Origin: a virus
Lineage: Duplodnaviria; Caudoviricetes
Length of the DNA stretch: 58,712 bases
Virus record (IMG/VR): IMGVR_UViG_3300014962_000008
Location: 1 to 58,712 of that record
Strand: one strand, 5' to 3'
The notes beneath the pieces were generated by a model. The model did not search any database. It was not told the DNA's origin and was given only the letters and a program-made list of their open reading frames with translations. The position numbers were made by a program, and so were the translations under genes. This document shows, in pieces, positions 14,254 to 30,688 of the stretch; the first letter of the stretch is position 1; each line of letters opens with the position of its first letter.

Positions 14254-16806
14254 TCATTGGTTAGGATTAGGGTTGATGCCTGTGCCGGTGGACACGCCGA
14301 CACGCTCGCCGCTGGCGATCTCGGCTGCAGCGAGCTGCATGGCCGTGCGGTTGTCGTCCGTGTTCATGGCCATGCGTGCTTGCAGCTCTGCGGCCTTGCG
14401 TGCGTCCTCGGCGGCCTGCTGCTGCTGCGCCATCTGCACGCGCGCCTGCAGCTCGGCGATGCTGAGCTGGGCGTCCTGCTGGTCGCTGGCTGCGTCTTGC
14501 TGCATGCGCGCCTGCTCGATGGCCATGCGCTGCTGCTGCGTCTGCTGGTCGGCCTGCATGCGCATCTGCTCAAGCTGCATCTGCTGCTGAAGCTTCTGCC
14601 CCTCGAGGGCCATGCGCGGGTCTTGCATGGGCTGCGGTGCGAACTGCTGCATGATCTGCTGCGCCTGCTGGATGATCTGCGGCAGGCTCTGGAAGAGCTG
14701 CTGTCCTGCACCCAGCGCCACGCCGCTGGCGTCGGCAAGCATGCGGTCAAGGGTGCGCCGCTCCTCGTTGTCCGCGTCCTCGACCATCTCCTTGAGCACG
14801 TCGCCGATGTCCTCGCCGATGGCCTGATTGCTGACCTCGACCACCGCCGTGGCGTACCACAGGGCAAGGTGCTCCTTGAGGTGGTTGAGGATGACCGGGA
14901 TCAGGGTCGGGGCGATCAGCGGGTTCATGCCGAAGGTCGGGTCCATCATGTACGCGATGTGCGTCTGCAAGTGGGCCAAGTGGTCCTGCTCGGGGAATGC
15001 CGTGATCGGTCGGCCCAGCGACGCGGCGACGTTCTCGTTGATCGCGTTCTGCTCCTTCGGCTCCAGCGGCGGGGCAAGCAGCTCCTTGGCGTTGGGGATT
15101 TTCAGCGTGTCGAGGATGCGCTCCTCAACCTTGCGCATGTTGTAGAGCTGCGGCATCGCCTGAGCGCGCTGCGCCACGGCCTGCATCTGCGCAAAGCGCT
15201 GCGTCTCGCTGAAGATGTTCGGGTCGCTGACCGGGACAACGTCAAGCGGCCCTTCGAAGTCTGCGCGCGTTGCCAGCTCCTCGCCAGCCTCATGCTCCAG
15301 ACGCTCGTCGTCGAGGTTCATGGCGTTGAGGCGGTGGAGGATGCGCAGCATGCGCGCCATCGCGTCGTGCAGACGCCCGTGGATCGACGAGTAGACGACC
15401 ATGCCCTGCTCAAGCTTGGCCAGTGTCGTGCCGACGGGCGCGTTCGGGTTCTGGTCGGCGATGTCCTCCATGGACGTGCGCACAACGCCCTTGCCCGCGT
15501 CGATCAGGAAGCCCAGCAGGCTGAACAGCACGGGGTTGGGCGGATTGTACGGCATCGGCATGAAGATCTTGCGGATGTCGTCAACATTGAGGCCGCCCTC
15601 GATCTCGCGGATTTCGCCCGGCACGGGTGCCTCGGACTGCCCGCCGATCTTGGCGCCCTTGAGCTTCAGGCCTGCGGGCGTGTTGCTGATGTGCGCCGCG
15701 TCAAGCAGGGCACGCAGCGAGCCGGTGGCGGCAGCGCTCAGGCCGCCGATCATGTGCGGCAGGCCGATCGGGTAGGCACCGCGCCACGGGATGAAGGGGA
15801 ACTCAACGAACCACTGCAGCTCTTCCTGCGACGCGTCGTCCTCGTCCCAGTTACGGTAGATGCTCAGCACCTTGCCGGTGGATTTATCCACCGAGATGAT
15901 GTAGGGTAGCGGCCCCTCGTCTTCCACGTCCGCGATGGCGTAGATTTCGTAGACGATGCGCAGACCATCCTCGTTGTAGCTGGTCTCGTCGCGCCCCTCG
16001 ATCTTGTTGTTGGCCTTGCCCGCGCCTGACAGCTCAGGCTCCATGCCCACCGGAGCAAGGTCAACGTCGCGGTACATGCCAGATTTTACACGCTGCTCGT
16101 AGTCGAGCTGCGTCAGGTACTGCACGTGCGTCTTGCGCTGCGCCGTGTAGAAGTTGGTCGCGGCGTAGGGCAGGTACATGTCGTCGATCGCGACGAATAG
16201 GAAGTTCGGGCGGTTGCGCTTCTCGTCCCAGCCCAGCTTGAGGTACTGCGCGCCGCCCAGCGGCACCTGCGTCATGAGCTGCTCAAGCTCTGCGCGGACC
16301 TCGGGGCACTGCACGGTCATCTGCCAGTTGAGCAGGTTCGTCTTGCGCTTGGCCTTGGCCAGCTTCTCTTCGTTCTGCTTGCCCGGGATGAAGTCCTTGG
16401 CCGGTCCCTCGGGCGGGAATATCTCCTTCATGGCCCGCGCGGCAAAGTCAACGCAGGCCTCGGTCAGCATGGGGTGCACGACCTTCGACGCGCCGCTGAA
16501 CTGCGCCCCGCCGGGCGCGTCATCGCCCAGACCCGTGCGGCGCAGGCCCTCTTCGTACTGCTCGTCGCGCTTCTTGCGCGCCTCCTTGTCCTTGGCGATC
16601 AGGTCAAGGAAGGAAGACGACAGACGCATGAGGTCTGGCTCGGACATGTTCTCGGCGAGGTTGGTGTAAAACTCGCTCTGACCCTCGGGCGGGCTGTCCT
16701 CGTCATCGAAGCGCACGATCGCGCCGCCGTCCTCGGTGTCCTCCACCTCGCTGTCGGCCCCTTCGACCTCCATGTACTCGCCTTCCGGCTTCTCGTCTTC
16801 GTCCAC
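14254..16806 (-). CDS. Portal protein
   Basis: 850 aa after the terminase; VVHPMLTEACVDF, PVGTTLA and PVSDPNI motifs; Gln-rich C-terminal barrel like P22-type portals. Confidence 0.9.
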   Translation of the reverse strand: MDEDEKPEGEYMEVEGADSEVEDTEDGGAIVRFDDEDSPPEGQSEFYTNLAENMSEPDLMRLSSSFLDLIAKDKEARKKRDEQYEEGLRRTGLGDDAPGGAQFSGASKVVHPMLTEACVDFAARAMKEIFPPEGPAKDFIPGKQNEEKLAKAKRKTNLLNWQMTVQCPEVRAELEQLMTQVPLGGAQYLKLGWDEKRNRPNFLFVAIDDMYLPYAATNFYTAQRKTHVQYLTQLDYEQRVKSGMYRDVDLAPVGMEPELSGAGKANNKIEGRDETSYNEDGLRIVYEIYAIADVEDEGPLPYIISVDKSTGKVLSIYRNWDEDDASQEELQWFVEFPFIPWRGAYPIGLPHMIGGLSAAATGSLRALLDAAHISNTPAGLKLKGAKIGGQSEAPVPGEIREIEGGLNVDDIRKIFMPMPYNPPNPVLFSLLGFLIDAGKGVVRTSMEDIADQNPNAPVGTTLAKLEQGMVVYSSIHGRLHDAMARMLRILHRLNAMNLDDERLEHEAGEELATRADFEGPLDVVPVSDPNIFSETQRFAQMQAVAQRAQAMPQLYNMRKVEERILDTLKIPNAKELLAPPLEPKEQNAINENVAASLGRPITAFPEQDHLAHLQTHIAYMMDPTFGMNPLIAPTLIPVILNHLKEHLALWYATAVVEVSNQAIGEDIGDVLKEMVEDADNEERRTLDRMLADASGVALGAGQQLFQSLPQIIQQAQQIMQQFAPQPMQDPRMALEGQKLQQQMQLEQMRMQADQQTQQQRMAIEQARMQQDAASDQQDAQLSIAELQARVQMAQQQQAAEDARKAAELQARMAMNTDDNRTAMQLAAAEIASGERVGVSTGTGINPNPNQ

Positions 16807-16874: not shown

Positions 16875-17087
16875 CTACCACTCGTCAGCCTGTTCGGAGA
16901 AGCGCCTCGTCACGAAGTACAGGATGCCCACGATCTGGGCCGCCGTCAGGCCGTCCTCGATAGCCATCGTCACGGCGCGTGCAAGGTCGTCGTGCAGGGT
17001 CTGTTCGCCCGGGTGGACGTTCTCGTTGACGGGCAGGTAGCGCCTGATCTCGATTACGTTGTCGTCTTCGTCTTCGTCTTCGTCCAT
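16875..17087 (-). CDS. Small acidic hypothetical protein (70 aa)
   Basis: ATG 17087 with GGGAG RBS; MDEDEDEDDNVIEIRR... Confidence 0.6.
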   Translation of the reverse strand: MDEDEDEDDNVIEIRRYLPVNENVHPGEQTLHDDLARAVTMAIEDGLTAAQIVGILYFVTRRFSEQADEW

Positions 17088-17098
17088 ACGTATCTCCC

Positions 17099-18547
17099 TC
17101 ACGCCGCGTACGGGTTGCCGGTGTTCTTGCGCGGCACGATTACCGGCGCGTCTTCCTTGATCAGTTTGATCATACCCTTGTCCATCATGAGCCGCATGGC
17201 TTGGCTGGCGGCGTCCACGTGGTCGTCGTGCTTGATGCTGCCCTCGCCCGTGAATGCGCACAACTGCGTGATCAGCGGGTCGCACCAGTTGCGCGGCCTG
17301 CCCGGGTGCTTCTCGCTCTCCGGCACCCAGACGCGCTTCTGCGCGAAGACCGGGCTGACGATGTGCAGGCGGGTGAGCTTGTCCGCGCGCCCCGGGTTGT
17401 ATGCGTAGGCCTCGATGCCCGCCTCGGCCAGCATCTGGCGCAGGCTGATGCCGCTGCCCTTGTCCTCGATCAGCAGGATGTCCGGCTTGCGCCCGGAGGT
17501 GAGCGGCTTGCTGCTGCCGAAGAGCGGCTTGATCAGCGCCTGATCCTCGTCGTCGCCGTAGGGCGTGTTCATCTCGCGCTTCACGCGGCGCATCAGGTCG
17601 GGCAGGCCGAGGTGGTCTTCCCAGCAATCAAGCAGCATGACGTTGGAGCGCTTCTCGTGGTGGAAAACTCCCCACACGCTGCACGCCGTTGGGTCGGGGT
17701 CGCCCTTCTTGTCGAGCGACTTCTCGGTGTAGGCCGTGTCGAGGGACATGATGATCCAGTCGAAGCGCGGCAGGGGTTTGTCGTGCGGCCACAGGCGCAT
17801 CCAGCTCCGCTTGATGATGCCGCTCTCTTCGGGGTCGATCAGCTCGCCGTACAGCTCCTGCCTGCCGAGCGTCGTGCCCTCGTACTGCTCAAGCGCCTTG
17901 AAGAAGCTGTCGGGCAGGTTGGCCTTGTTGTCGAAGGTCGAGCCGCGCACGATGATACGATCGGGCGCCGGGGTGCTGAGCTTGCGGATCAGCTCCTTGG
18001 GCTTGGGTGTCGTTGTCCACAGCACCTGCGGGTTGGGGCCGAGGCGCATGCCGAACATTGCCATGTCCCACGTGTCCTCGTCGTACTGCCACGCTGCCAG
18101 CTCGTCGAACCAGCCGCGACAGTGCTGCGGCCCGCGCAAGCGCTCGGGCTTCTCCGCCGTGAAGCCGCGTATCGTGCTGACGCCGCCAGCCACGTTCTTC
18201 ATGCGGATGAGCATGTCGGACTTGTTGTGCTCGACGAGCAGCTCAGGGGGTAGCACGCTGAGGATGCCGCTCTCGCCCTCGAAGCAGGTGAACTTCACGT
18301 CGCTGTAGGTCGGGGCGATGACGCAGCTATCGAAGCCGCTCGGGTCTTCGAAGACGGCCCGCGTAATCCACTCGGCGCCGACGCGGGTCTTGCCGAAGCC
18401 GCGCCCGGCGAGGTAACCGCACTCGGTCCAGTTAGAGCCTTCAACCATTTGGTTGGGCCGCGCTGTCGCGCGCCACCTGTTCTGCCAGTCGAGGTGGACG
18501 CGCTGCTCGGGGCTGAGCTGGGCAAGGAGGGCGGCAACGTCGGTCAT
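17099..18547 (-). CDS. terL: Terminase large subunit
   Basis: Walker A AGRGFGKT, LRGPQ, Walker B WFDE, TTTP motif, nuclease motifs SLDTA and HDDHVDA. Confidence 0.95.
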   Translation of the reverse strand: MTDVAALLAQLSPEQRVHLDWQNRWRATARPNQMVEGSNWTECGYLAGRGFGKTRVGAEWITRAVFEDPSGFDSCVIAPTYSDVKFTCFEGESGILSVLPPELLVEHNKSDMLIRMKNVAGGVSTIRGFTAEKPERLRGPQHCRGWFDELAAWQYDEDTWDMAMFGMRLGPNPQVLWTTTPKPKELIRKLSTPAPDRIIVRGSTFDNKANLPDSFFKALEQYEGTTLGRQELYGELIDPEESGIIKRSWMRLWPHDKPLPRFDWIIMSLDTAYTEKSLDKKGDPDPTACSVWGVFHHEKRSNVMLLDCWEDHLGLPDLMRRVKREMNTPYGDDEDQALIKPLFGSSKPLTSGRKPDILLIEDKGSGISLRQMLAEAGIEAYAYNPGRADKLTRLHIVSPVFAQKRVWVPESEKHPGRPRNWCDPLITQLCAFTGEGSIKHDDHVDAASQAMRLMMDKGMIKLIKEDAPVIVPRKNTGNPYAA

Positions 18548-18867
18548 GCGTTCCGGTACAGGCTCAGTGCGTCGCGCAGTTGGAGGTTGGTCTCGCGGAT
18601 GCGGTCATAACGGTCGTTAGCATCGGACAGCGCGCGATCCATCGAACGCAGCTCGCGCTCAAGTTCGCGGATGCGACGCCACGGGCCGATCGGCGCGCGC
18701 CAGTTGAAGCCGAAGGGCACGGCGAACTTGAGGCGGCGTGCGTGCCGGTCCCACAGGATGTGCAGCGAGAGCCACGGCGTGCTGAGGATCACGTTCTTCG
18801 CCAGCGGTTCCCACAAGACGTTAAGCCCTGTGCGAACTTGCCCCCCTTCCCGGCGCCGGTAGATCAC
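18544..18867 (-). CDS. Hypothetical protein with C-terminal coiled coil
   Basis: 4-nt overlaps with both terminase genes. Confidence 0.65.
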   Translation of the reverse strand: MIYRRREGGQVRTGLNVLWEPLAKNVILSTPWLSLHILWDRHARRLKFAVPFGFNWRAPIGPWRRIRELERELRSMDRALSDANDRYDRIRETNLQLRDALSLYRNA

Positions 18868-19301
18868 TCGGACGATCCCGCTTTGCGCAACGCCTCGGCA
18901 AGTTGCAGCGTGAGCGCCACGGTGTCGACGTTGCTATCGACCTTGAGCGTCTCGCCATCCTTGTTGCCGACATCAACGACCTGCTTGTCGCCGTACTTCT
19001 TCGGCTTGAGCTTGCCCATGGCCCACTTGCGCGTGTCGATGCGCACGCGCTTCTCTTGCGGGTCGAGGCCTTCCCGGTCGGCGATCTCGAGGATCTCCTC
19101 GAGCATGTCCTCCGTGGCCGCTTCGCGCGCACGCGCATACTTCTCCGCGAAGTCGGGGAAGCGATCGAGCCACACGTACACGGTCGATGCGACAGGGAAC
19201 TCATCCATCATGCAAAGCTTGCGCAGGCTCACGCCCTCTGTGAGCTTGTCACAGATGCGGTTAGCCATCTCTTCGGTGTAAGTGCTCGGGCGTCCGGTCA
19301 T
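18864..19301 (-). CDS. terS: Terminase small subunit (Sf6 gp1-like)
   Basis: GRPSTYT...SLRKLC...FAEKYARARE...DTRKWAMGKLKPKKYGD. Confidence 0.9.
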   Translation of the reverse strand: MTGRPSTYTEEMANRICDKLTEGVSLRKLCMMDEFPVASTVYVWLDRFPDFAEKYARAREAATEDMLEEILEIADREGLDPQEKRVRIDTRKWAMGKLKPKKYGDKQVVDVGNKDGETLKVDSNVDTVALTLQLAEALRKAGSSE

Positions 19302-19386
19302 TGATCTGCATGCTCCGTAAACGTGACAGGGCTTCCAGTGTCACGACGCAAGATACGCTCGATCTCCACATTGCGCAAGGGTGCTG

Positions 19387-19650
19387 TCAATCGAAGACGA
19401 ACAGATCACCCTCAACGCGAAACGGCAAGTCACCTCGATCGTGCATGCGCCGCATCGCCCTGACCAGACGCTGCCTGCGCGTGTCGCGCTTCTCACCGAC
19501 ATGCGGCAGCGCCTCAATGCAATGACGCAGGAAGTCCTCGTGACCCATCGACGAGTGCACGAGGGACAGCGCCTCCCCTTGTGCCCGAACCAGCTCCTCG
19601 ACCGAACCCTTCTGTCCCCACCCCTGCTGGTTCGAAGCAAACAATCTCAT
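19387..19650 (-). CDS. Stand-alone paralogue of the primase-helicase C-terminal domain (putative DNA-binding protein)
   Basis: ATG 19650 with GGGAG RBS; EALP..KRDTRRQ..VRA..P..VEG..F is shared with the C-terminus of 28638-30683. Confidence 0.75.
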   Translation of the reverse strand: MRLFASNQQGWGQKGSVEELVRAQGEALSLVHSSMGHEDFLRHCIEALPHVGEKRDTRRQRLVRAMRRMHDRGDLPFRVEGDLFVFD

Positions 19651-19717
19651 TTTCATCTCCCTTTCACTACAACACTGAAACGCAAACATACAACATATCC
19701 GGTCACAGCGTCAAGGA

Positions 19718-19912
19718 ACTGCACCGCGAAGCATCACGGTGCAAAAGTTTCAGAGCCTGCATCATCACCGCCAGCAGCTCCTGCACCACTTGCAGCATCA
19801 GGGTTACCCCTAAAGGGGTACCCCCTCTGTGCTGCAGCAGTTGGTGCATTTCGGGGAGCTGCACCATCTGCACCGTGATGCACCATGCTGTAAATGGTGC
19901 AAATGGTGCAGG
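19718..19912. repeat. Iteron-like TGCA[C/G/T]C array around a palindrome; putative replication origin or packaging site
   Basis: About 12 TGCACC/TGCAGC/TGCATC copies in both orientations; central tacccct-aa-aggggta and ggggtacccc palindromes at 19805-19824. Confidence 0.6.
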
Positions 19913-19968
19913 CCCAAAGCCAACGAAAATTCGCTGAGAAAACTTTTTTCACACCACATGCACTTTTT

Positions 19969-20044
19969 TGCAAATAGGGGGTTGCAACGCTGCACCACAT
20001 ATGAGAGAAGAGGTCATCAGAAACGCACTTACGGAGCAAATCAG
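19969..20044 (+). promoter_or_regulatory. Early promoter and conserved leader 1
   Basis: tgcaaatagggggTTGCAAcg (21 nt identical to 30689-30709); ATCAGAAACGCA at 20016; GGAG RBS. Confidence 0.7.
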
Positions 20045-20347
20045 ATGACCGAACTCGACACCCTCCTCGCCGAAATGAAAGCTGCCACCAAGACCGTGAC
20101 ACTCGACGATCTCGGATCTGCCCAGCGCAAGGCTGCTGAGCGTGTCATCGCTAAGGTCGTTGGCGAGCGCAAGGAGATCAAGAAGCTCACGATCCACCGC
20201 TTCGCAGACAACCGCTACGTAACGCTGTACGTTGAAGCTGGTCTGCCCAACGACGAAGGCACGCTTGCTGCGATCTTCGCTCGTGACGAAGCTCACGTTC
20301 GGGTCGGCATCAACGGCGGTGTCACCGACATCACCCGCAACCGCTAA
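20045..20347 (+). CDS. Early hypothetical protein
   Basis: ATG 20045 after GGAG; MTELDTLLAEMK... Confidence 0.75.
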   Translation: MTELDTLLAEMKAATKTVTLDDLGSAQRKAAERVIAKVVGERKEIKKLTIHRFADNRYVTLYVEAGLPNDEGTLAAIFARDEAHVRVGINGGVTDITRNR

Positions 20348-20358
20348 CCCAACCTCTC

Positions 20359-20402
20359 GGGGGCTTCGGCCCCCACCCATCAGCAACGCAGGAGTACCCG
20401 AC
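20359..20402 (+). promoter_or_regulatory. UUCG hairpin followed by conserved leader 2
   Basis: gggggc-ttcg-gccccc with no U-tract, then ATCAGCAACGCAGGAGTAC (20379-20397). Confidence 0.7.
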
Positions 20403-20672
20403 ATGGCCCATCTCATCACCCCGCGCCTCAACATCAACGGCACCAGCGCCGTTGACCTGATCGACCCGCGCCGCAAGGCGATCGACCTGATCGGCGAGCT
20501 GGTCGAGACGCTCAAGCAGGTCACGCCCAACGGACGCGACTACCCGGCGGAGCACGCCACCCGTCTGAGTGGCGACCGTGCCACCCACTTCGACCGCCTG
20601 TCGGCCCTGCGCGACCTGCAGGCCGCCCTGCTTCAAGAAGCCGTACAGATCATGCAACAAGAGGAGGCTTGA
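20403..20672 (+). CDS. Early hypothetical protein
   Basis: ATG 20403 after AGGAG; MAHLITPRLNINGTS...PNGRDY. Confidence 0.8.
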   Translation: MAHLITPRLNINGTSAVDLIDPRRKAIDLIGELVETLKQVTPNGRDYPAEHATRLSGDRATHFDRLSALRDLQAALLQEAVQIMQQEEA

Positions 20673-20675
20673 CCC

Positions 20676-20894
20676 ATGCCACTAGAACTGACCAGCTTCA
20701 CCGGCGCACTCCGTGAGCGCCACCCCAACATCGAGAGCGTGATCGACCGGCTGGCCGACACCTTCACCGGGTCGCTGATCTCCAGCAGCCCCTACACCAC
20801 CGAGGCAGGCAGCATCGCCTACCGCATCTGGGTAGACAACGACCAGCTCTACGGCTGGGCCATCCCGCTCAGCGACATCTACGAGGGAGACTGA
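20676..20894 (+). CDS. Hypothetical protein
   Basis: RBS GGAGG, tight packing. Confidence 0.7.
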   Translation: MPLELTSFTGALRERHPNIESVIDRLADTFTGSLISSSPYTTEAGSIAYRIWVDNDQLYGWAIPLSDIYEGD

Positions 20895-20898
20895 CATC

Positions 20899-21099
20899 AT
20901 GACCGCAGACAACCAGCAACGCCGCCTCGACCTGAACAGCCTGCTGCTGACCTTCGAGAGCGACATCATCCGCCGATACGACCTACAGCGCGCCGACCCA
21001 CCGGAGGATTTCCTCGACATCGACGTTGACGCATCAGTCGCCAAGGTGAGCACGCGCATTGAGCGCATCCGCGAGAAGATCCTTGCCTACGCAAACTAG
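20899..21099 (+). CDS. Hypothetical protein
   Basis: RBS GGGAG, tight packing. Confidence 0.7.
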   Translation: MTADNQQRRLDLNSLLLTFESDIIRRYDLQRADPPEDFLDIDVDASVAKVSTRIERIREKILAYAN

Positions 21100-21100
21100 C

Positions 21101-21164
21101 GCTTGCAATGTAGCATTGCACGTGCCAGACAGGACAACCAATCAGCAACAAAGGAGACGCTGAC
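21101..21164 (+). promoter_or_regulatory. Promoter and conserved leader 3
   Basis: TTGCAA 21103, TTGCAC 21116, ATCAGCAACAAAGGAG 21141-21156. Confidence 0.65.
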
Positions 21165-21437
21165 ATGTTTAAGTACCTCATCGCCGCAGCCGCGCTGCTC
21201 ACGCCCACCGCCGCCAGCGCAGCCGAGATCATGATTACCTCCGGGCGCCAGAGCGTCCTGACCGAGGCCGCCAAGACCATCTGCCGCACGGTGATGGAGA
21301 CCAAGGGGCGGGCGGGCGAGACCTTCGACCGCGAGGTGTCCTACCTCCGCCTCACCCCCGACGAGCAGGTCTACCTGCTCTCGCTGTGCGTCCTCTACGC
21401 GCAGGGCCGTGTTGATCAGGCAAGGGCGCAGCGGTGA
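21165..21437 (+). CDS. Secreted/periplasmic hypothetical protein
   Basis: Signal-peptide-like N-terminus MFKYLIAAAALLTPTAASA. Confidence 0.7.
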   Translation: MFKYLIAAAALLTPTAASAAEIMITSGRQSVLTEAAKTICRTVMETKGRAGETFDREVSYLRLTPDEQVYLLSLCVLYAQGRVDQARAQR

Positions 21438-21661
21438 TGACTGATCTCGACAAGGCGAACCGCGAACTGGACGCAATCATGCTGCCCGTGAACAACGAAC
21501 TGGGCGACCGGATCGTCAGGACGTGGCTCAAGCTGCACATCGCATGGGCGCAGGAGGCATATGACACTGCGACCCACGAAGAGGACAGGGTCAATGCGCT
21601 GGCTGACCTCCATGCCATGAGCCAAGTGCTGAACTACGCAGGGGGTGAGTTCGATGACTGA
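21434..21661 (+). CDS. Hypothetical protein
   Basis: Start overlaps upstream stop. Confidence 0.7.
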   Translation: MMTDLDKANRELDAIMLPVNNELGDRIVRTWLKLHIAWAQEAYDTATHEEDRVNALADLHAMSQVLNYAGGEFDD

Positions 21662-21708
21662 TCCTTGCAAATTGGGAGCGGCGCTCCGGATATTTGGGAG
21701 TGAAGGAG

Positions 21709-21906
21709 ATGACTGACAACATTTCCACGTTCTCGACCGGCTGGTGCTTCACCTGCGGCACGAACGCATGTGAGCATGTGAAGCATCTGAACCTCTGCAA
21801 CCGGAACGCGTTTGATATGTTGCTGCGCGATCTAATGGAACAGAAGCCAAAGACCAAACTGCCGGGACTAACTGGCGAACCGTGGAGGAGGTACCCCCAT
21901 GACTGA
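21709..21906 (+). CDS. Small Cys/His-containing hypothetical protein
   Basis: ATG 21709; CFTC..CEH possible zinc site. Confidence 0.55.
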   Translation: MTDNISTFSTGWCFTCGTNACEHVKHLNLCNRNAFDMLLRDLMEQKPKTKLPGLTGEPWRRYPHD

Positions 21907-22126
21907 CATCCGCATTGAATGGCTGACCGCCAGCACAGATTGCGACCAAGCCGGTTGCAGCGGCGGCTACTCCGAAGGCGCACGGGTCTGGTTCGACGGT
22001 GAACTGGCCCTCGACCTTCCGCCAGAACCATCCTGCTACGGTTCGGCCTTCTACGATCAAGAGCAAGTGTTCGGCCTGATCCTAGCCAAGCTGGGGCATA
22101 ACCTTGTGGAGACTAGCTATGACTGA
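21899..22126 (+). CDS. Hypothetical protein
   Basis: RBS GGAGG; overlaps neighbours. Confidence 0.7.
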   Translation: MTDIRIEWLTASTDCDQAGCSGGYSEGARVWFDGELALDLPPEPSCYGSAFYDQEQVFGLILAKLGHNLVETSYD

Positions 22127-22475
22127 CAGTATTGAGCAGAAAGCACTGGCACTGATTGACAAGACGCGCCGCAATAGTGACTTGCCAAAGGCCAGAGACG
22201 AAAACGCGCGTGGCAGTGTGGCGTTTCCAGCCTTGCTCTGCGCCATCGAACAGCACGAAGCCTTCAAGTTGGAAGTGAGCGATGCGGTGGCGGCTGCGTT
22301 AGATTGCGGCGATGTTGAGCGCCTGCGCCGTGAAGGCATCCTTTCCCGCTTCATCATCGCCAAGCCCGACCCGCTGGTTGATTACCTAACTAACGACGAG
22401 GGGTATTTCCCAAGGGTGGCAAAGGAAGTCGCTGACAGGCTGCGTTCCAAGTTTGAGATAAAGGAGAAGCGGTGA
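22119..22475 (+). CDS. Hypothetical protein
   Basis: ATG 22119 after GGAG. Confidence 0.7.
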   Translation: MTDSIEQKALALIDKTRRNSDLPKARDENARGSVAFPALLCAIEQHEAFKLEVSDAVAAALDCGDVERLRREGILSRFIIAKPDPLVDYLTNDEGYFPRVAKEVADRLRSKFEIKEKR

Positions 22476-22675
22476 TGCCTGAAGATGAACTCGTGGAGTG
22501 GCTGCGTAGTGATGGCGTCTACGAAGGCCGCGCGTTTTTGCAGCAAGCCGCCGACTGCATCGAAGCCCTTGAGGCCGAGAACGAGCGGCTGCGTGAGGCG
22601 CTAAGAAACATTGATGCGTGGGGCGACGAATGGGCTGCGTCAAAAGCCCGCGCCGCACTCGCAGGAGAACAGTAA
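22472..22675 (+). CDS. Small coiled-coil protein (IEALEAENERLR family)
   Basis: AADCIEALEAENERLREAL...ARAALAG. Confidence 0.7.
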   Translation: MMPEDELVEWLRSDGVYEGRAFLQQAADCIEALEAENERLREALRNIDAWGDEWAASKARAALAGEQ

Positions 22676-22989
22676 TGTCCAAAGAACGTAGCAAAATTAT
22701 GGACAACCTGATCGCACAGGACGCGGACTTGATAGCCAAGCTGCGCGATGAGGACAGCTATTACCGCCTTCAAGAGAAGCACTGGTGCATCGACGCTGAA
22801 GAACTGGAGCGCCAGCGTCTAGCTGCTGCTGATCGTATTGAGGCCCTTGAGGCCGGATTGCGTGAAGTGTTCGAGCAATGGGCTGGCAGTGAAGGCTTCA
22901 TCCCTGAAACAGCACCGGAGGGGTATCTGCTCCAACTAACCAAGCGCATGGCTGACATCGCCCGCGCAGCCTTGGGAGAAAAGCAATGA
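22675..22989 (+). CDS. Small coiled-coil protein (same family)
   Basis: ATG 22675; AADRIEALEA...ARAALGE. Confidence 0.7.
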   Translation: MSKERSKIMDNLIAQDADLIAKLRDEDSYYRLQEKHWCIDAEELERQRLAAADRIEALEAGLREVFEQWAGSEGFIPETAPEGYLLQLTKRMADIARAALGEKQ

Positions 22990-23222
22990 CAGAGATTGAA
23001 CGCAAAGCGCGGGTGGAGTTTCTGCGAACAGAGGCGGAATTTACGCATGAGTTTCATATTGCCGCCGACCAGATCGAAGCAGACGGCAAGCGCATTGAAG
23101 CCCTTGAGGCCGAGAACGAGCGGCTGCGTGACCAACTAGAATATGCGGTAAAAGAGCTTTCCAGTTACCGCGCAAAGTACATGGTCGGCACCAGCGCACC
23201 CTTAGGAGACAGCCATGACTAA
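22986..23222 (+). CDS. Small coiled-coil protein (same family)
   Basis: KRIEALEAENERLRDQL. Confidence 0.7.
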   Translation: MTEIERKARVEFLRTEAEFTHEFHIAADQIEADGKRIEALEAENERLRDQLEYAVKELSSYRAKYMVGTSAPLGDSHD

Positions 23223-23385
23223 GCAGCTAACCCCGCTACGCCGCAAGGACCAAGCCACGGGCTATCAAGCTGCGGTCAGGGATATCGTAGCGTGGTTGCG
23301 GCGCGACGAAGACCCGTACCCTGACAGCTACGATATAGCCGACGAGATCGAAGCCAAGTTTGGAAAAGCCAATGTGGCTGACTGA
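23215..23385 (+). CDS. Hypothetical protein (56 aa)
   Basis: Read manually; RBS AGGAG; MTKQLTPLRRKD... Confidence 0.6.
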   Translation: MTKQLTPLRRKDQATGYQAAVRDIVAWLRRDEDPYPDSYDIADEIEAKFGKANVAD

Positions 23386-23458
23386 CCTACGCAACTGGCT
23401 CTGGGATAACTTCGGCTTCGAGCTAATCGACTGGGCCGAGGACGACATCAGGTTTTGA
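23372..23458 (+). CDS. Small Trp-rich hypothetical protein (28 aa)
   Basis: Read manually: MWLTDLRNWLWDNFGFELIDWAEDDIRF; fills the gap to the convergent gene. Confidence 0.45.
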   Translation: MWLTDLRNWLWDNFGFELIDWAEDDIRF

Positions 23459-23466
23459 AGGAAGTG

Positions 23467-24603
23467 CTAGTGCTCAATCATCTCCGGGCAGACCATGACA
23501 CGCCCCACCTGACCGAAGCGCTTGTGGTACGTGATGGCCTGCGCAGCCCGATCAGCGATCCAGCCGCCACGCGCGGCGTACGCGTCACGCGCTGCCAGCG
23601 TCGGGTGCTGCACAACGGTGACGCCGTTGTATTCCTTCTCGTCCCGGTGATGCCGGTGGCCGCAGTGGATCTCGCGGCGGCGAGTGGCGCCCCACGTCTC
23701 CGGGAACTGGGCGGCGAAGAGCAGCGGGAGCTGCTCGTTCTTGACCTTGTGCCCGTGGTGGACGCCAAGCATCGTCTCGCCCCACTGGAAGACGTAGAAG
23801 GGCAGGTCGCTGTCATTGACGCGCAGGCGCGGCTCATCCTCGTAATGCACGGCGAACAGGTCGGACAGCCAGCCAGCACCCTCCTCGTCGTGATTGCCCT
23901 CGGCTATGATCAGATGCACATCGTTATGCCGCTCAAGGGACATGCGCACCAACTCGCGGATCAGGCGGATGGCGCTGCGGCGGATCTTGGGGTAGCGGCT
24001 GTCGGCGTCGAGGATGTTCTTGCTGGCGGGCGTGAGGGGGAGCTTGCCGTCCGTGTGCAGGAAGTCACCTTGGATATTGATCACGGCGGCGTGCGCTGCG
24101 GGGGATTGCTCCACCATGGCGCGCATTGCGCCCAGCAGGACACGCTCGGCGATGGCCAGATCCCAGTCCGCGCCGCCCTCGTTGTGCCACGCGTACATGC
24201 CGAGGTGGTAGTCGGTAAAGGTGTAGAGGTTACACAGGTCGGCGTTGACCAGACCCGGCGCGGTGATCGCCTCGGCCTTGGGCAAGTCTTCCTTCAGGGC
24301 CTCGACCACCTCCAGCATGGCCGCGCGCATGGCCTCGCGATCGGGAGACTGCCTCTCCCACGTCCGCTCGACGTTGCCCGTGGGCCCGCGCTGGATGGTG
24401 ACCTTGCCCATGGCGTAGCCGGGCGCCACGCCACTCTCGAAGTGGCCCGGAGCGAAGCCGCGCGCCGCCGCAGCCCGCACCCTCGCTTGGAAGGTGCTGC
24501 GCGGCATGCCGAGGGCCGCAGCGGCCTCAGTTTCCGTTCCGTATTGTTGGAGCGCTTCTACAGTCTCGCGAAGGACATCTTCGGACAGTGGCTGTGCAGG
24601 CAT
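23467..24603 (-). CDS. Calcineurin-like metallophosphoesterase with N-terminal HTH
   Basis: All five motifs: TDYH, GDFLH, GNHD, HHGH, GHRH; N-terminal TEAAAALGMPRSTF HTH. Confidence 0.85.
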   Translation of the reverse strand: MPAQPLSEDVLRETVEALQQYGTETEAAAALGMPRSTFQARVRAAAARGFAPGHFESGVAPGYAMGKVTIQRGPTGNVERTWERQSPDREAMRAAMLEVVEALKEDLPKAEAITAPGLVNADLCNLYTFTDYHLGMYAWHNEGGADWDLAIAERVLLGAMRAMVEQSPAAHAAVINIQGDFLHTDGKLPLTPASKNILDADSRYPKIRRSAIRLIRELVRMSLERHNDVHLIIAEGNHDEEGAGWLSDLFAVHYEDEPRLRVNDSDLPFYVFQWGETMLGVHHGHKVKNEQLPLLFAAQFPETWGATRRREIHCGHRHHRDEKEYNGVTVVQHPTLAARDAYAARGGWIADRAAQAITYHKRFGQVGRVMVCPEMIEH

Positions 24604-24678
24604 CAAGACCTCGAACGTAGTTCGGGGCGGACATATACAGCGAATGTTTCACTTTTGCACTAAAAAAGGAATTGACAG

Positions 24679-25254
24679 TTGTTTATAAGCGACACCATCG
24701 CCAAGTGCGCGGACTTATTTTACGTCAACCAGAACCTCATAACCTCGAAAAGCAGGTTGCGCACTGCCGTCCGCGCCCGTCAGGCTTTGGCCATGGCCCT
24801 CTCAATTCGCGGGCACTCGACTGCCGCGATCGGGCGCTGGCTGGGGCGAGACCACACCACGATTATGCACAGCCTCGACGTGGCCAAGGAACTCATGTCT
24901 CGCGACAGTATGTTTGGCGAGAAGGTTTTCCTCTTGGCGCAGAGCGTGCACGAGGTGGATAACCCCCACCCCCAGCGCCACAAGCAGAAGGCCAAGCTGG
25001 ACAAGGAAGCCAAGACAATCGTTCTAGACGACACCCCGGAGGAGAAGGTCGAGGCGGAAAAGGAGCTGCGCTACTCTGGGCCGGAGGCTTGGGGCTGCGA
25101 CAAAGGCGTGCCCACGCACAACAACCTCAACCGCAGCCTGCGCTACGTATCGGAAAAGCTCCTCGAGAGCATCAACCGCGAACTCAAGAAAGCCGCGATG
25201 GCACGCGCAGCCAAGCCGCACTATCGCCTTGTGGGAGGACTGACCAGTGACTGA
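24679..25254 (+). CDS. DnaA C-terminal (domain IV)-like HTH protein
   Basis: VRARQALA...STAAIGRWLGRDHTTIMHSL matches the DnaA domain IV signature. Confidence 0.75.
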   Translation: MFISDTIAKCADLFYVNQNLITSKSRLRTAVRARQALAMALSIRGHSTAAIGRWLGRDHTTIMHSLDVAKELMSRDSMFGEKVFLLAQSVHEVDNPHPQRHKQKAKLDKEAKTIVLDDTPEEKVEAEKELRYSGPEAWGCDKGVPTHNNLNRSLRYVSEKLLESINRELKKAAMARAAKPHYRLVGGLTSD

Positions 25255-25501
25255 AGACGAACTGCACAACGAGGCTCACCTCAACGCCGAGCATGAAGTG
25301 CGCGAGGTGCTGAACGCCACCTTTTACGATGAAAACCTGCGCTGCTGCCGGGCAGATGTCTTGCTCAATGTTCTGGAGGATGAGTTCATGCAGATGGACG
25401 ACAGCGACGACGTGTCCTTCGTCCTGTTCCGCATGGTCGCCTTGGCCCTGCAGCGCAATCAACAAGACGCCCAAATCTTCGACACGGTGGGGTCAGCATG
25501 A
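25247..25501 (+). CDS. Acidic hypothetical protein
   Basis: GTG start after GGAGG; overlaps neighbours. Confidence 0.65.
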   Translation: MTEDELHNEAHLNAEHEVREVLNATFYDENLRCCRADVLLNVLEDEFMQMDDSDDVSFVLFRMVALALQRNQQDAQIFDTVGSA

Positions 25502-25596
25502 AAATCCTGAGCAACGCAGCCATGCTGCTGGGAGGCAGCCTGCTTGTCGCCCAGTGGCTCGTCCTCTTCTGGGCCCTGTGGGTGATGACGCCATGA
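25498..25596 (+). CDS. Small membrane peptide (32 aa)
   Basis: Read manually: MKILSNAAMLLGGSLLVAQWLVLFWALWVMTP; ATGA overlaps at both ends. Confidence 0.5.
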   Translation: MKILSNAAMLLGGSLLVAQWLVLFWALWVMTP

Positions 25597-25691
25597 TAGC
25601 AGCCATCATCTCCCTGACTGCGGTCGTTGTGGCCATCGTCGCGGGCGATTGGCTGGGGCGCGCAATCAGTGAATGGAAAAAGTTCAAATAG
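25593..25691 (+). CDS. Small membrane peptide (32 aa)
   Basis: MIAAIISLTAVVVAIVAGDWLGRAISEWKKFK; ATGA-coupled. Confidence 0.5.
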   Translation: MIAAIISLTAVVVAIVAGDWLGRAISEWKKFK

Positions 25692-25750
25692 GGTATTGCA
25701 ACGCTCCGTTGCATGGCTTATGGGTCAGTCATCAGCAACGGAGATACCCC
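25685..25750 (+). promoter_or_regulatory. Promoter and conserved leader 4
   Basis: caaatagggtaTTGCAAcg (TTGCAA 25696), TTGCAT 25709, TATGGG at 17-nt spacing, ATCAGCAACGGAG 25731-25743. Confidence 0.7.
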
Positions 25751-26722: not shown

Positions 26723-26724
26723 AG

Positions 26725-28641
26725 TTGCGCTACGGTTCCGTCTGCAGCGGCATTGAGGCCGCGACTGCCGCATGGCACCACATGGGCTGGGAACCCGCCT
26801 TCTTTTCAGAGATTGAGGCTTTCCCGCGCGCGGTGCTTGAACACCACTACCCTGAAGTCCCACTGCATGGCGACTTCACAACCATTGAGAAGAACCAATA
26901 TGGCCAAATCGACCTCCTCGTTGGCGGAACCCCCTGCCAATCCTTCAGCGTTGCCGGTCTCCGAGGGGGACTGGATGATGAACGTGGTAACCTCGCCCTT
27001 GAGTTTTGCCGACTTGCTCAGCGCGAGCAACCTCGCTGGATTGTCTGGGAAAACGTCCCCGGTGTCCTGTCATCGAACGGAGGACGGGACTTTGGTTCCA
27101 TCCTCGGGGCGCTGGAAGACCTCGGGTACGGTCTCGCGTACCGGGTCTTGGACGCTCAGTACTTCGGAGTGGCCCAGCGACGCCGCCGTGTGTTTGTTGT
27201 CGGATATCTTGGAGACTGGCGACCTGCCGCAGCGGTTCTTTTTGAGCGCCACAGCATGTCAGGGCATCCTGCGCCGAGCCGAGAAGCGCGGAAAGAAGCT
27301 GCCAGAGCAGCTTCAGTCAGCACTCATGAGTGTGGTGGAATTGGAAGCTACAACGAAAGCGACATCAGCAGCCCTCTCCTCCGATCAGGAGCTGACAAAG
27401 GACACGGATGCGAAGCCCTCATCGCTGGAGGGGATGGACTTGCTCTGACCGAGACAGTCGGCACGCTGCGCACCCGCCGCCCGGGCGAGGGCGGCGTGCA
27501 AGGTGACTTCGACCACATCGTGCCGGTGGTCAGCCCTGCCTTGAACACGCAGAGCGGGTCGCACCACGCGCCCGACACCAAGGCCTATGTCGTTGTCCAC
27601 GGTACGCAAGACCCCTGTGTCTCCACAGACACTGCTTTCGCCTTGGGCCGCAATAATGGTGGCGAAAACGCCATCGCCTACTCCATCATGCCGATGAACA
27701 GCGGCAAGGACTACAAGGCCCGCGAGACTGAGGTCGCGCAGCCGATCATGGCGGGCGGCCCAGTGGGCGGCAATCAGGGCGGCGACTATGTTGTTCAGCC
27801 AACCATCGCCATCCAAGATGTTCGCGGTACCGATAAGGCACAGAACGGCAAGGGCTGGTCTGATGAGGGGGCTAGCTACACCGTTGACACCCACGCAACG
27901 CAAGGTGTGTCAAAAACAGTTGCCGCACGCAACGATCAGGACACGGCTTCCTGTGTGGCCTTTACGGCTCGCGATTACGGCGCGGATGCTACAGAAAACT
28001 TAGCACCCACCATGCGGTCTTTGGCGAGGGGCGCGGACGGGCATCAGTCAGGGTCACATGGTTTGGCCGTGGCATTCGCACAGAACACCCGCGATGAGGT
28101 TCGTCTGATTGGCGATGATCGCGCACTGTCATTGCAGCGCAGCCAGACACAGGCAATTGCACTCCAAGATGTGCGTGGGATTAAAAAAGCGCAGAATGGG
28201 CGCGGTTGGAACGATGATGGGTCAGCATATACAGTTGACACACGGGCAACGCAAGGTGTGGCTTACCCAGTGGGCAGCAATCAGGGCGGCTTTACCAACA
28301 GCCACCAGAACGGCGGCGTGATGCCTGCAGTTGCGATCGGCTTCAACGAGGACGGCACTGCGCGGACATTGACTGCGCGTCACGACAGCAGCCCGTGTGC
28401 TGATCGCGGGCCAGATGTGGTATCGCAAACCTCTGCCGTTCGCCGCCTGACCCCTGTTGAGTGCGAGAGGCTGCAAGGGTTTCCTGACAACTTCACGGCA
28501 ATCCCGTGGAAGAAGAAGGGACCAGAGCAGTGCCCCGATGGCCCGCGCTACAAGGCGCTCGGCAACAGCATGGCGGTTCCGGTCATGCGGTGGATCGGTG
28601 AGCGCATCCAGCTTGTTGATGACTTGATTTCGGTCCTATGA
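26725..28641 (+). CDS. C5-cytosine DNA methyltransferase with expanded modular variable region
   Basis: Motif I SVCSGIEA, IV GGTPCQSFS, VI WENVPG, VIII QRRRRVF, IX-X RRLTPVECERLQGFPD..GNSMAVPV; TTG start 26725 after GGGAG. Confidence 0.92.
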   Translation: MRYGSVCSGIEAATAAWHHMGWEPAFFSEIEAFPRAVLEHHYPEVPLHGDFTTIEKNQYGQIDLLVGGTPCQSFSVAGLRGGLDDERGNLALEFCRLAQREQPRWIVWENVPGVLSSNGGRDFGSILGALEDLGYGLAYRVLDAQYFGVAQRRRRVFVVGYLGDWRPAAAVLFERHSMSGHPAPSREARKEAARAASVSTHECGGIGSYNESDISSPLLRSGADKGHGCEALIAGGDGLALTETVGTLRTRRPGEGGVQGDFDHIVPVVSPALNTQSGSHHAPDTKAYVVVHGTQDPCVSTDTAFALGRNNGGENAIAYSIMPMNSGKDYKARETEVAQPIMAGGPVGGNQGGDYVVQPTIAIQDVRGTDKAQNGKGWSDEGASYTVDTHATQGVSKTVAARNDQDTASCVAFTARDYGADATENLAPTMRSLARGADGHQSGSHGLAVAFAQNTRDEVRLIGDDRALSLQRSQTQAIALQDVRGIKKAQNGRGWNDDGSAYTVDTRATQGVAYPVGSNQGGFTNSHQNGGVMPAVAIGFNEDGTARTLTARHDSSPCADRGPDVVSQTSAVRRLTPVECERLQGFPDNFTAIPWKKKGPEQCPDGPRYKALGNSMAVPVMRWIGERIQLVDDLISVL

Positions 28642-30683
28642 GCGGAGAGGACAACGACATGACAAACATCAGGGCAATTGCGCCCGCGCTACAGGCTGTT
28701 CGCGTTCCGGAGCCGCTCAGGGCATTGCCCGGCTGGCTGATCTGGCGCTATGAGCAGTTCGCAGGCGAGGCCAAGCCGCGCAAGATCCCCTACTGGGCAG
28801 ACGGCACCCGTCGCCACGGCCAGCAGGGCGGCCCGCAGGATCGCGATCGGCTGTCCACCTTCGTGGCTGCGCAGGACGCGGCGATCAGGCTGGGCTTCGA
28901 CGGCGTGGGCTTCGCGTCTCTGGCCGACTTTGGCTACGTCTTCCTCGACTTCGACGCCTGCGTCGACGTGCATGGCAACATGCCCAAGGAAGTCGAGGAC
29001 ATCGTCAACCGGACCTATGCCGAATACAGCCCGAGCGGCAAGGGCGTGCGCGCCGTGCTCAAGGGTGATCTGGGCAACCACAAGAGTTATCCAACGCCCG
29101 ACCAGTACGGCTTCGAGACGTTCAGTTCCACAGGCTTCGTGACCTTCACCGGCAACATCCTGCCGATCGTTGAGGTGCTGGGGTACGAGGACCACATCGC
29201 CGACGTGGACGAAAAGACCAAGGCGCTGTGCGAGCGGCGCTTCGGTGCGTCCGCAGGGACGACCTTCGACGCGGACGACTTCATGGCCGGGCGCGAGCCG
29301 AAGGTTGGCTTGACCGTCAGCCAGATGCAGGAGCTACTGTCGCACCTCGACCCAAGCATGGGCCGCGAGCCGTGGCTGCGCGTCGGTCTGGCCCTTCATC
29401 ACGAGACCGAGGGTGACGACACCGGCTTTGAGCTGTGGGACGAGTGGTCGAGTGAGGGCGAGACCTACCCGGGCACAGAGGGCCTGCGCTACCAGTGGGA
29501 AAGCTTCAGGCCGACACCGGGCAAGCGCCAAGTCACCATGGCCTCGGTGATCAAGATGGCCAAGGAGGCGGGCTACCGCCCCACTGAGGCAGGCAGCCGC
29601 GAGGAAGTGTTCGCCAAGGCCGAGGCGATCATGGCTGACCTGCCAGCGAAGAGCACAGGCCGCTTCGGCCCGGTGCCGATTTACGACCTGACCCAGCGCG
29701 AGCCGATGAGCTGGCTGATCAAGGCCGTGCTGCCCAAGGCCAAGCTTGGCATCCTGTTCGGCGCGTCAGGCAGCGGCAAGACCTTTGTCGCGCTGGACCT
29801 CGCCTTCTCAATCGCGCGGGGCAATGCGTGGCGCACGCGCAAGACGACCAAGGGGCGTGTTGTGATCATCGCCGCGGAGGGCGGCAGCGGTCTGGGCAAG
29901 CGCGCCGAGGCCTACGCACAGTTCCACGGCTTCGACCTGCGCAGCGTGCCAGACCTGCACGTCATCACCGCTGCACCCAACTTCCTCGACAGTGACGACA
30001 TCTCGGAGGTGATTGCCGAGATCAAGAACCTTGGCCCGGTCGATCTGGTCGTAACCGACACGCTGGCGCAGGTCACGCCGGGTGCGAACGAAAACACGTC
30101 CGAGGACATGGGCCGCGCACTGGCCAATCTCAACCTGCTGCACGAAGCGACGGGGGCGATGAACCTCGCCGTACACCACGCGGGCAAGGATCTCACCAAG
30201 GGCTCGCGCGGCTGGTCCGGCATCAAGGCCGCCGCCGACGTGCAGATCGAGGTGCTGCGCCACGAGAACGGCGAGCGCGAGATCGTCATCGAGAAGATGA
30301 AGGACGGCGAGGACGGGCTGCGATGGGGCTTCAAGCTCGAGGTGGTTGAGCTGGGCGTAGACTACGACGGCGACAGCATCACGAGTTGCGTCGCGGTGGA
30401 GGCCGACCTGTCTAAGCCAAGCGAGGACATGGAAGACCGCAAGGGCCTGAAGCGCCGCGGGCGCATCGAGAACCACGTCCTTGAGGTCATGACGCTCTTC
30501 GGCGCAGAGAGCGTTGTCAGCGCGGTCGAGCTTATTGACAAGGCCGTCGAGGCCCTTCCGGCACCGGAAGAGGGCAAGCGCGACACGCGCCGACAGTCCG
30601 TGGTGCGCGCGATTAACGGCCTGAGCCGGGAGAAAGATGGCCCACTTAAAGTGGAAGGCGGAAAAATTATCTTCTACGAGTAA
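28638..30683 (+). CDS. Primase-polymerase / PriCT / RecA-like (AAA_25) helicase fusion
   Basis: AEP motifs FLDFD and YAEYSPSGKG; W..VGLAL..WDEWS PriCT; Walker A GASGSGKT; DTL and HHAGK..RGWS. Alternative start 28659. Confidence 0.9.
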   Translation: MSGEDNDMTNIRAIAPALQAVRVPEPLRALPGWLIWRYEQFAGEAKPRKIPYWADGTRRHGQQGGPQDRDRLSTFVAAQDAAIRLGFDGVGFASLADFGYVFLDFDACVDVHGNMPKEVEDIVNRTYAEYSPSGKGVRAVLKGDLGNHKSYPTPDQYGFETFSSTGFVTFTGNILPIVEVLGYEDHIADVDEKTKALCERRFGASAGTTFDADDFMAGREPKVGLTVSQMQELLSHLDPSMGREPWLRVGLALHHETEGDDTGFELWDEWSSEGETYPGTEGLRYQWESFRPTPGKRQVTMASVIKMAKEAGYRPTEAGSREEVFAKAEAIMADLPAKSTGRFGPVPIYDLTQREPMSWLIKAVLPKAKLGILFGASGSGKTFVALDLAFSIARGNAWRTRKTTKGRVVIIAAEGGSGLGKRAEAYAQFHGFDLRSVPDLHVITAAPNFLDSDDISEVIAEIKNLGPVDLVVTDTLAQVTPGANENTSEDMGRALANLNLLHEATGAMNLAVHHAGKDLTKGSRGWSGIKAAADVQIEVLRHENGEREIVIEKMKDGEDGLRWGFKLEVVELGVDYDGDSITSCVAVEADLSKPSEDMEDRKGLKRRGRIENHVLEVMTLFGAESVVSAVELIDKAVEALPAPEEGKRDTRRQSVVRAINGLSREKDGPLKVEGGKIIFYE

Positions 30684-30688
30684 AAAAG

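Follow-up and report, generated by a model that had tools for sequence, protein, structure and literature searches.

Phage P4 alpha combines a primase-helicase with a DNA-binding tail, and the P4 origin carries repeated short sites. To our knowledge, the P4 copy-number regulator Cnr is not a copy of the alpha tail. A free form of an initiator tail is reportedly made by HSV-1. This protein, OBPC (UL8.5; said to have been described by Baradaran et al. in 1994), is reportedly the separately expressed C-terminal DNA-binding part of UL9, and it is said to be an in-frame product of the UL9 gene that is identical to the initiator's tail. As far as we know, the switch from replication initiation to late expression and packaging in tailed phages is understood for a few model phages only.

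According to the available part of the published account of the SaPI Rep and PriRep proteins (PMC9371898), their C-terminal winged helices (WHs) bind iterons of 5 to 6 nt, with six to twelve iterons per origin. The iterons point in opposite directions on the origin's two sides and lie immediately downstream of rep, around an AT-rich center. The same part of that account assigns the SaPI Rep helicases to the superfamily-3 type.

The sequence analyzed here, called the window, is an entire IMG/VR virus record (58,712 bp; completeness rated at 98%). Its nearest cultured relatives are Caulobacter phage RW and the relatives of that phage (proposed genus Riverwalkvirus). RW gp051 aligns with 99% of the window primase-helicase at 51.5% identity, and RW shares the two-arm layout with terS at the head of the minus arm. 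The RW primase tail carries a WH (E 1.8e-12); this was the only match in the 62,362-bp RW genome, in which no free-standing WH copy was found. RW gp003c, which lies upstream of terS, is unrelated to the WH protein of the window (hhalign probability 0.5%), and, unlike those of the window, the RW junction repeats are of another kind. The RW junction also holds a double TTGCAA element that is similar to the 21-mer TGCAAATAGGGGGTTGCAACG of the window. The available part of the Riverwalkvirus description gives no origin (PMC11053796).

The winged-helix gene and its family

The accessory WH gene of the window encodes the protein P0001 (Table 1). Its frame opens with an ATG at 19650, with AGGGAG six bases before it. 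The homologues share this start, with MRLF or MKLF. Within the gene, GC3 is 0.69 versus a GC2 of 0.41. On the minus strand, the gene is followed by terS, a 107-aa ORF, terL, and an 850-aa ORF. We considered a terminator between the WH gene and terS, and dropped it because the folding energies were no better than those of shuffles at five of five loci (z -0.11 to +1.44).

A crude gene map divides the record into two transcription arms. The minus arm runs from 19650 down to 1 and then from 58712 to 39966 if the record is circular, which is an assumption, as the record is listed as linear in IMG/VR. The plus arm runs from 20045 to about 39800 and includes genes for a DnaA-C-like HTH protein, a Cro/YdaS-like protein, a cytosine methyltransferase, and the primase-helicase. 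Because the arms diverge from 19650 and 20045, the 394-bp gap at 19651-20044 is a divergent junction. The WH gene is the first gene of the minus arm, since the plus arm begins at 20045. The earlier note had called it the first gene on the late strand, ahead of terS; the gene map agrees with this position, and "late", like "origin", is used here as a label for the arm or the array and not as an observation.

Table 1. Coordinates of features at the arm junction and of the primase-helicase in the window
Feature	Position	Strand	Details
terL, terminase large subunit	17099..18547	-	Terminase_6N E 1.7e-19; Terminase_6C E 1.4e-8
terS, terminase small subunit, next gene downstream of the WH gene	18864..19301	-	PF20901 E 2.8e-36; phrog_1482 E 3.6e-41
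Accessory WH gene (P0001)	19387..19650	-	87 aa; stop codon included
Sigma-70-like promoter TTGACG-18-TATGTT, reading into the WH gene	19685..19714	-	Consensus match only
Inverted repeat TGCACCG-N10-CGGTGCA, beside the -35 hexamer	19720..19743		
TGCACC/GGTGCA (TGCA-core) array, divergent intergenic region	19720..19996	both orientations	10 exact TGCACC; 16 TGCA cores
Central G/C palindrome GGGTTACCCCT/AGGGGTACCCC, within the array	19800..19824		
21-mer TGCAAATAGGGGGTTGCAACG, early-side edge of the array	19969..19989	+	Exact second copy at 30689-30709
Primase-helicase	28638..30683	+	PriCT_2 231-308, AAA_25 351-518, then WH tail
Primase-helicase C-terminal WH domain (residues 596-681)	30423..30680	+	BLASTP, HMMER, AF2

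Near-identical pieces of the 17000-21000 region were found in runs X1 to X20, which are aquatic, freshwater, estuary, aquaculture, and wastewater metagenomes from 14 studies. The WH gene is covered by contigs of X16 (probably DNA) and X2 (DNA), and one X2 DNA contig spans 19378-19972, i.e., the WH gene and most of the array, with 12 differences. The contigs of the metatranscriptome runs X19 and X20 leave 19144-19813 without cover, which has no bearing on transcription either way.

P0001 matched no Pfam family (E up to 0.1), no PHROG, and no NCBIfam entry. None of the 18 members of alignment A1 had a meaningful Pfam family, with a single chance-level row in one of the 18 (E 0.0055). A word-indexed protein search returned four P0001 clusters of 87 to 90 aa at 66 to 99% identity. 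A HMMER scan of 1.84 billion representatives returned 28 free-form proteins at E up to 1e-3 (50%-identity clusters). Fourteen of these are 81 to 104 aa long, and nine are 127 to 210 aa long with the domain C-terminal or duplicated. The remaining five are long proteins (651 to 2559 aa) with partial multi-stretch matches, and they were not counted as family members. The form fused to a primase-helicase is far commoner, with 185 clusters (90% identity) at E up to 1e-3. Among the matches listed, the fused proteins are PriCT_2 plus AAA_25 proteins of 650 to 681 aa, and one of 1006 aa. This longer relative, P0047, has PF14528 (LAGLIDADG-type) between PriCT_2 and AAA_25, which suggests that the insertion may be an intein or a homing endonuclease.

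A tblastn search of P0001 against 50,697 phage records found no match, and a megablast search of 17000-31000 found methyltransferase pieces only. The plus-strand cytosine-methyltransferase-like ORF at 26596-28641 has 81% nucleotide identity over 565 bp to Caulobacter phage DMCA and about 90% identity over 80 bp to Burkholderia phages. No P0001 relative was found by a single-protein scan of viral contigs or by a pattern scan of species-representative genomes, both of which were pattern-limited. Alignment A1 was too diverse for locus scans, and the narrower alignment A2 was used for them. A literature search on phage primase-helicases, winged helices, and iterons returned no paper on the P0001 family, and one on truncated or dominant-negative origin-binding domains in phage returned nothing relevant by title and abstract. 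Judged by its sequences, the P0001 family is unannotated and mostly free-standing.

Relationship of P0001 to the primase-helicase tail

The earlier note had aligned the C-termini of P0001 and the primase-helicase, the latter a match to several PHROG primase/helicase families. Both ends that it quoted are exact in the translations, and BLASTP confirmed the likeness: P0001 residues 39-86 and primase residues 631-679 are identical at 21 of 49 positions (43%; E 8e-10). A six-frame HMMER search of the record gave exactly two matches, which were the WH gene itself and the primase 3' end. The second match covers residues 10-86 of the P0001 query (E 1.2e-7). Therefore, nearly the whole of P0001 is homologous to the primase tail.

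The AF2 model of P0001, made with the 18-row alignment (pLDDT 85.5), has the element order H-E-H-H-E-E (H16-29, E34-36, H37-47, H58-72, E78-80, and E83-85). The AF2 model of the primase tail (30396-30680; pLDDT 84) has the same order (H23-35, E40-42, H43-53, H65-77, E84-87, and E90-93). Both models thus have the H1-S1-H2-H3-S2-S3 order of a winged helix, with the β-hairpin wing after helix 3. The earlier note had asked for this comparison and had named different folds as grounds against its claim; because one winged-helix topology is predicted for both domains, this objection fails.

In a structure search independent of Foldseek, winged helices head the lists for both models, and the chain 3o6b_B is first in both, with Z 7.4 for P0001 (rmsd 2.5; 66 residues aligned) and Z 8.6 for the primase tail. 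P0001 also matched an MCM C terminus (Z 6.9), the DNA-bound DpnI WH (Z 6.8), and H5 (Z 6.5), and the primase tail matched 4esj_A (DpnI-DNA; Z 8.6) and ORC/Cdc6 domains (Z 7.6 to 8.1). In general, MCM, ORC/Cdc6, and histone H1/H5 domains score Z 6 to 8 against the two models. We take the recognizable rows among the structural matches of both models to be winged-helix domains. Because the Z values are middling (below 9), they support the fold class and nothing finer. Foldseek found no P0001 match at E up to 0.001, and all recognizable ones among its weak matches are winged helices. A profile of the 18 sequences against all PDB chains returned designed repeat proteins and other chance rows (E at least 0.06). 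The best ESM Atlas score for P0001 was 0.88, which is a lead only.

Five columns are invariant across the accessory and primase types, namely the R, D, R, Q, and R of RDTRRQ..R, and all five sit at the start of helix 3. In P0001, nine of the 20 residues at 53-72 are K or R. Helix 3 is the usual DNA-reading helix of winged helices, and many winged helices bind proteins, not DNA. By alignment and predicted fold, P0001 is a stand-alone winged-helix domain and an old paralogue of the primase-helicase tail.

We compared accessory domains with the primase of their own genome and with 10 other primase rows, a set that includes two identical rows. For the G005 accessory domain, identity to the own primase is 70%, versus 49 to 55% to the others; for that of G007, the values are 70% and 42 to 66%. 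There was no clear own-genome excess for the window (35% versus 25 to 32%), G001 (26% versus 25 to 27%), or G002 (33% versus 32 to 39%), and for the window domain the difference is within chance. The accessory and primase copies of G007 share a rare RDIRR variant. A tree built from 32 domains places the accessory domain of G005 as sister to that of its primase (99/98) within the primase clade (97/99), and P0001 of the window falls in a separate, poorly resolved group of free-standing forms. In an AU test on the 76-column alignment, the six primase domains as one clade were not rejected (p 0.387). Because a single old duplication followed by co-divergence predicts equal distance to all primases, the own-genome excess points to repeated duplication or gene conversion, by which the accessory domains of G005 and G007 would have been re-matched to their own primases. 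The AU result, the short alignment, and the three accessory domains without a clear own-genome excess weigh against this reading. A target shared by the two domains is the most economical explanation of the re-matching.

Repeat array and synteny in related phages

As the earlier note had stated, the WH gene borders a TGCACC array. Within these 277 bp (19720-19996) lie 10 of the window's 32 TGCACC sites, a hexamer that is depleted window-wide (32 found versus 46 expected). About 300 bp here contain 16 TGCA cores, where 1.1 would be expected, and the second densest 300-bp stretch of the record contains 9. That stretch, at about 14325-14625, is inside the 850-aa minus-strand ORF. The boxes of the array run 9 to 10 bp apart in both orientations. 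The array is kept in the window, L003, L004, L005, and L007 with 70% mean column identity and invariant boxes, and the WH proteins of these loci are only 48 to 58% identical. The array also contains a strictly conserved block, GCAGGCTCTGAAACTTTT, and equivalents of its central palindrome are found in L003, L004, L005, L007, L025, L026, G005, L037, and G009.

The promoter-like sequence beside the array matches 9 of 12 consensus positions; one such site was found, and shuffles predict 0.3. The window, L003, and L005 share TTGACG at this point of the alignment, and L004 and L007 differ there. If transcription starts about 7 nt after the -10 hexamer, the center of the inverted repeat would be near -53.5. 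The second exact copy of TGCAAATAGGGGGTTGCAACG is directly after the primase-helicase stop codon, and a third match with 3 mismatches is at 25683-25703, making three matches (up to 3 mismatches) versus none in shuffles. Both exact copies precede plus-strand genes and lie on the strand of those genes, and TGCAAATAGGGGGTTGCAACG probably serves the plus arm as a promoter or operator.

A distance of 8.7 kb separates the array from the primase gene, near which there are two TGCACC sites only (29972 and 30772). The cumulative GC skew of the record was uninformative: it increases monotonically and does not turn at the array. Measured over 60 bp, GC content is lowest in the record at 24629 (0.32), within 24590-24700. 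This interval is flanked on one side by a minus-strand exonuclease gene embedded in the plus arm (23467-24606; phrog_704 E 2.8e-111) and on the other by the DnaA-C-like HTH gene (24679-25254; PF08299 E 5e-11). It is an alternative candidate location for the origin.

We collected related loci by scans of viral and metagenome contigs and by whole-record searches, and read them ORF by ORF. Synteny in related phages was another check that the earlier note had proposed, and it came out in favor: the WH-bearing gene is directly upstream of terS on the same strand in all 14 loci with downstream DNA (window, L003, L004/G001, L005, L006, L007, L008/G002, L020/G005, L026, L029, L032, L033, L036/G007, and L037). 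L025 was not counted, as its sequence stops 19 bp beyond the gene. The genes have three architectures. A single domain is found in the window, L003 to L005, and L026, and a tandem WH-WH in L006, L007, and P0007. The third type, a predicted four-cysteine zinc ribbon followed by a WH, is found in G002, L029, L033, G005, G007, and L037, and also in P0168, P0170, P0172, P0173, P0174, and P0179. The N-terminal domain of G005 is homologous to the G002-type N-terminal domain (hhalign probability 87%, E 4e-6). As read from sequence, the zinc ribbon plus winged helix is a new architecture.

The TGCA array touches the WH-bearing gene in all 13 loci with flank sequence. In seven loci of the single or tandem type, GGTGCA is the commonest hexamer and the array is upstream of the gene. 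The array is likewise upstream in G002, L029, and L033, with GTTGCA as the commonest hexamer, and it lies between the accessory gene and terS in G005, G007, and L037, with GCTGCA. G008 and G009, which have no accessory WH, carry dense TGCA arrays before the late operon, with GTTGCA and GCTGCA, respectively. The G008 and G001 primase domains are 84% identical, and their arrays differ (GTTGCA versus GGTGCA). The G009 primase domain is 66% identical to that of the window, yet its array has GCTGCA. The QSVVRAI helix is the same in these primase domains, and no consistent rule relating helix-3 residues to hexamer flavor was found across the loci, so that this comparison gave no support to sequence-specific repeat binding by the primase copy.

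Three of the seven near-complete genomes have the accessory gene (window, G002, and G005). It is absent from the other four, G004, G008 (91% complete), G009 (94% complete), and Caulobacter phage RW, and it is therefore an optional add-on. In G004 (58,714 bp, 100% complete), the slot upstream of terS holds an AAA_25 protein. This slot gene (L022 112-1263, plus strand) encodes a 383-aa AAA_25 (RepA-like) protein (Pfam E 6.7e-16) that is distant from the primase-helicase (31% over 84 residues), and it is followed by a G/C palindrome and a few GTTGCA boxes. G009 (L087, reverse-complemented 1085-1423) has a homologue of the first plus-strand gene of the window, 20045-20347. The homologue lies downstream of the array, shares the strand of terS, and immediately precedes that gene; the junction has therefore been rearranged between relatives. 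Where they occur together, the WH gene, the TGCA array, and terS form a conserved three-part module at the arm junction.

Possible roles of the free domain, and known systems

We tentatively favor, as a reasonable possibility, a reading in which the free domain occupies an array that it shares with the primase tail, modulates both initiation and the adjacent promoter, and so links replication to late expression. In this scenario, the basic third helix of P0001, KRDTRRQRLVRAMRRM, would read the TGCA core of the array, and the primase-helicase tail would read the same TGCA sites when the enzyme assembles there. With the free domain on these sites, both initiation at the junction and the adjacent promoter, which would drive the WH gene and the packaging genes, would be modulated. 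Replication would thereby be coupled to the start of late expression. DNA binding is an inference here, as are the choice of the array as target, its role as origin, and the direction in which the free domain acts. The array is most likely the shared target because helix 3 is basic and invariant and the neighborhood is constant. Because the hexamer flavor does not follow the primase domain, it would be the TGCA core that is read, if the array is read at all.

Counted in favor of this reading are the homology, the shared fold, the invariant helix 3, the synteny at 14 of 14 loci and array contact at 13 of 13, the tandem WH-WH forms, the re-matching in G005 and G007, and the SaPI Rep precedent. 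Counted against it are the hexamer flavor that does not track the primase domain, the 8.7 kb to the array, the arrays of G008 and G009 without an accessory WH, and the absence of the gene from four of seven near-complete relatives. The lack of own-genome preference in the window, G001, and G002, the AU result (p 0.387), and the fold Z values below 9 also count against it. The earlier note had inferred a dominant-negative origin binder that switches replication to packaging, or else a late-transcription regulator or loader. Its parts on homology, shared fold, and synteny were borne out, whereas the reading as a simple competitor at the origin met contrary evidence from the arrays and from the absence of the gene in four of seven near-complete relatives.

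Much of the junction would also suit a plain transcription factor, which would act as activator or autoregulator of its own and the packaging promoter, as repressor of the divergent early promoter, or both. Its likeness to the primase tail would then be shared ancestry, and the primase tail would not bind the array. A small gene of DNA-binding type lies beside divergent promoters with repeats between them, the sigma-70-like promoter is immediately downstream of the array, and the inverted repeat abuts its -35 hexamer. In G005, G007, and L037, the gene is upstream of the array and the array directly before terS, a layout expected of a separately expressed late-promoter activator. At all 13 loci, hexamer flavor and accessory type go together (GGTGCA in the seven that have a single or tandem WH, GTTGCA in the three of the G002 type, and GCTGCA in the three that have zinc ribbon plus primase-type WH), but this link may be plain phylogeny. 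A transcription factor leaves the re-matching to the own primase in G005 and G007 unexplained, ten to sixteen sites are far beyond the need of an ordinary operator, and the arrays of G008 and G009, where the gene is absent, would need another reader. We consider this account unlikely, though far from negligible.

The position before terS invites a role in packaging instead, in which the WH would mark a pac-like site in the array or aid assembly of the small terminase there. Site-specific DNA-binding domains guide terminases in other phages. The adjacency to terS holds at all 14 loci, in each of the three architectures and for WHs of at least two origins; the array is directly before terS in G005, G007, L037, and G008; and the central G/C palindrome, with repeats of opposite orientation on its flanks, could mark the place of cleavage or assembly. 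However, such a role does not explain the link to the primase tail, and four of seven near-complete relatives package without the gene. In addition, terL is of the Terminase_6N/6C type, which usually means headful packaging with loose site needs. A packaging role is improbable. A protein-binding decoy, finally, would bind the protein partner of the primase tail, either the helicase ring or a host replication factor, and regulate the enzyme without contacting DNA. Winged helices that bind proteins (such as cullin WHB, MCM, and RPA32 C-terminal domains) are numerous among the best structural matches, and the re-matching to the own primase fits a shared protein partner equally well. In the available part of the SaPI account, the Rep C-terminal domain packs against the neighboring ATPase subunit (PMC9371898). 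We nevertheless regard a decoy as very improbable, given that the invariant residues cluster as basic positions where helix 3 begins and that the constant repeat-array neighborhood would be a coincidence.

A bolder version of our favored reading, of a free domain on an array shared with the primase tail, is doubtful. In it, a group of uncultured aquatic phages would repeatedly copy the initiator tail to the head of the packaging operon and keep it matched by gene conversion. After the late arm has been switched on, the free domain would displace the primase-helicase from a junction origin or block it there. If true, this would be a built-in timer from initiation to packaging with an evolutionary signature that can be read in sequence, and a phage counterpart of the herpesvirus OBPC idea. 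If the array is the shared target, it would be the first candidate origin for Riverwalkvirus-like phages. The domain re-matching is a sequence-level sign of a target common to both proteins. The module is compact and testable, comprising an 87-aa protein, a 300-bp array, and the tail of a primase-helicase, and it recurs in many aquatic and wastewater phage genomes.

Unlike P4 alpha, the window has a primase and helicase of a different type and no PDB profile match. The SaPI Rep and P4 alpha domains are absent among the fold matches listed, which excludes nothing. The window primase-helicase resembles SaPI Rep in its predicted C-terminal winged helix, and the window repeat resembles the SaPI iterons in its length of 6 nt, its 10 exact copies, and its two orientations. 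However, its ATPase is AAA_25/RepA-like, and the array surrounds a G/C palindrome 8.7 kb from the primase gene; beside that gene, we found a copy of TGCAAATAGGGGGTTGCAACG after the stop codon and two TGCACC sites only. The domain is C-terminal on a primase-helicase in the primase copy and not in P0001, which is free-standing, and the available part of the SaPI account describes no stand-alone copy of the domain (PMC9371898). In its proposed logic, a free initiator DNA-binding domain alongside the full protein, the module would resemble HSV-1 OBPC. Unlike OBPC, P0001 is the product of a separate gene, 9 kb away on the other strand, and 43% identical to the tail over 49 residues; OBPC also belongs to a eukaryotic virus and an unrelated fold family. 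The idea of a stand-alone initiator DNA-binding domain is thus already known, and the present module varies it. By analogy, its closest counterpart in kind is the C-terminal winged helix of SaPI Rep, and its closest counterpart in logic is HSV-1 OBPC.
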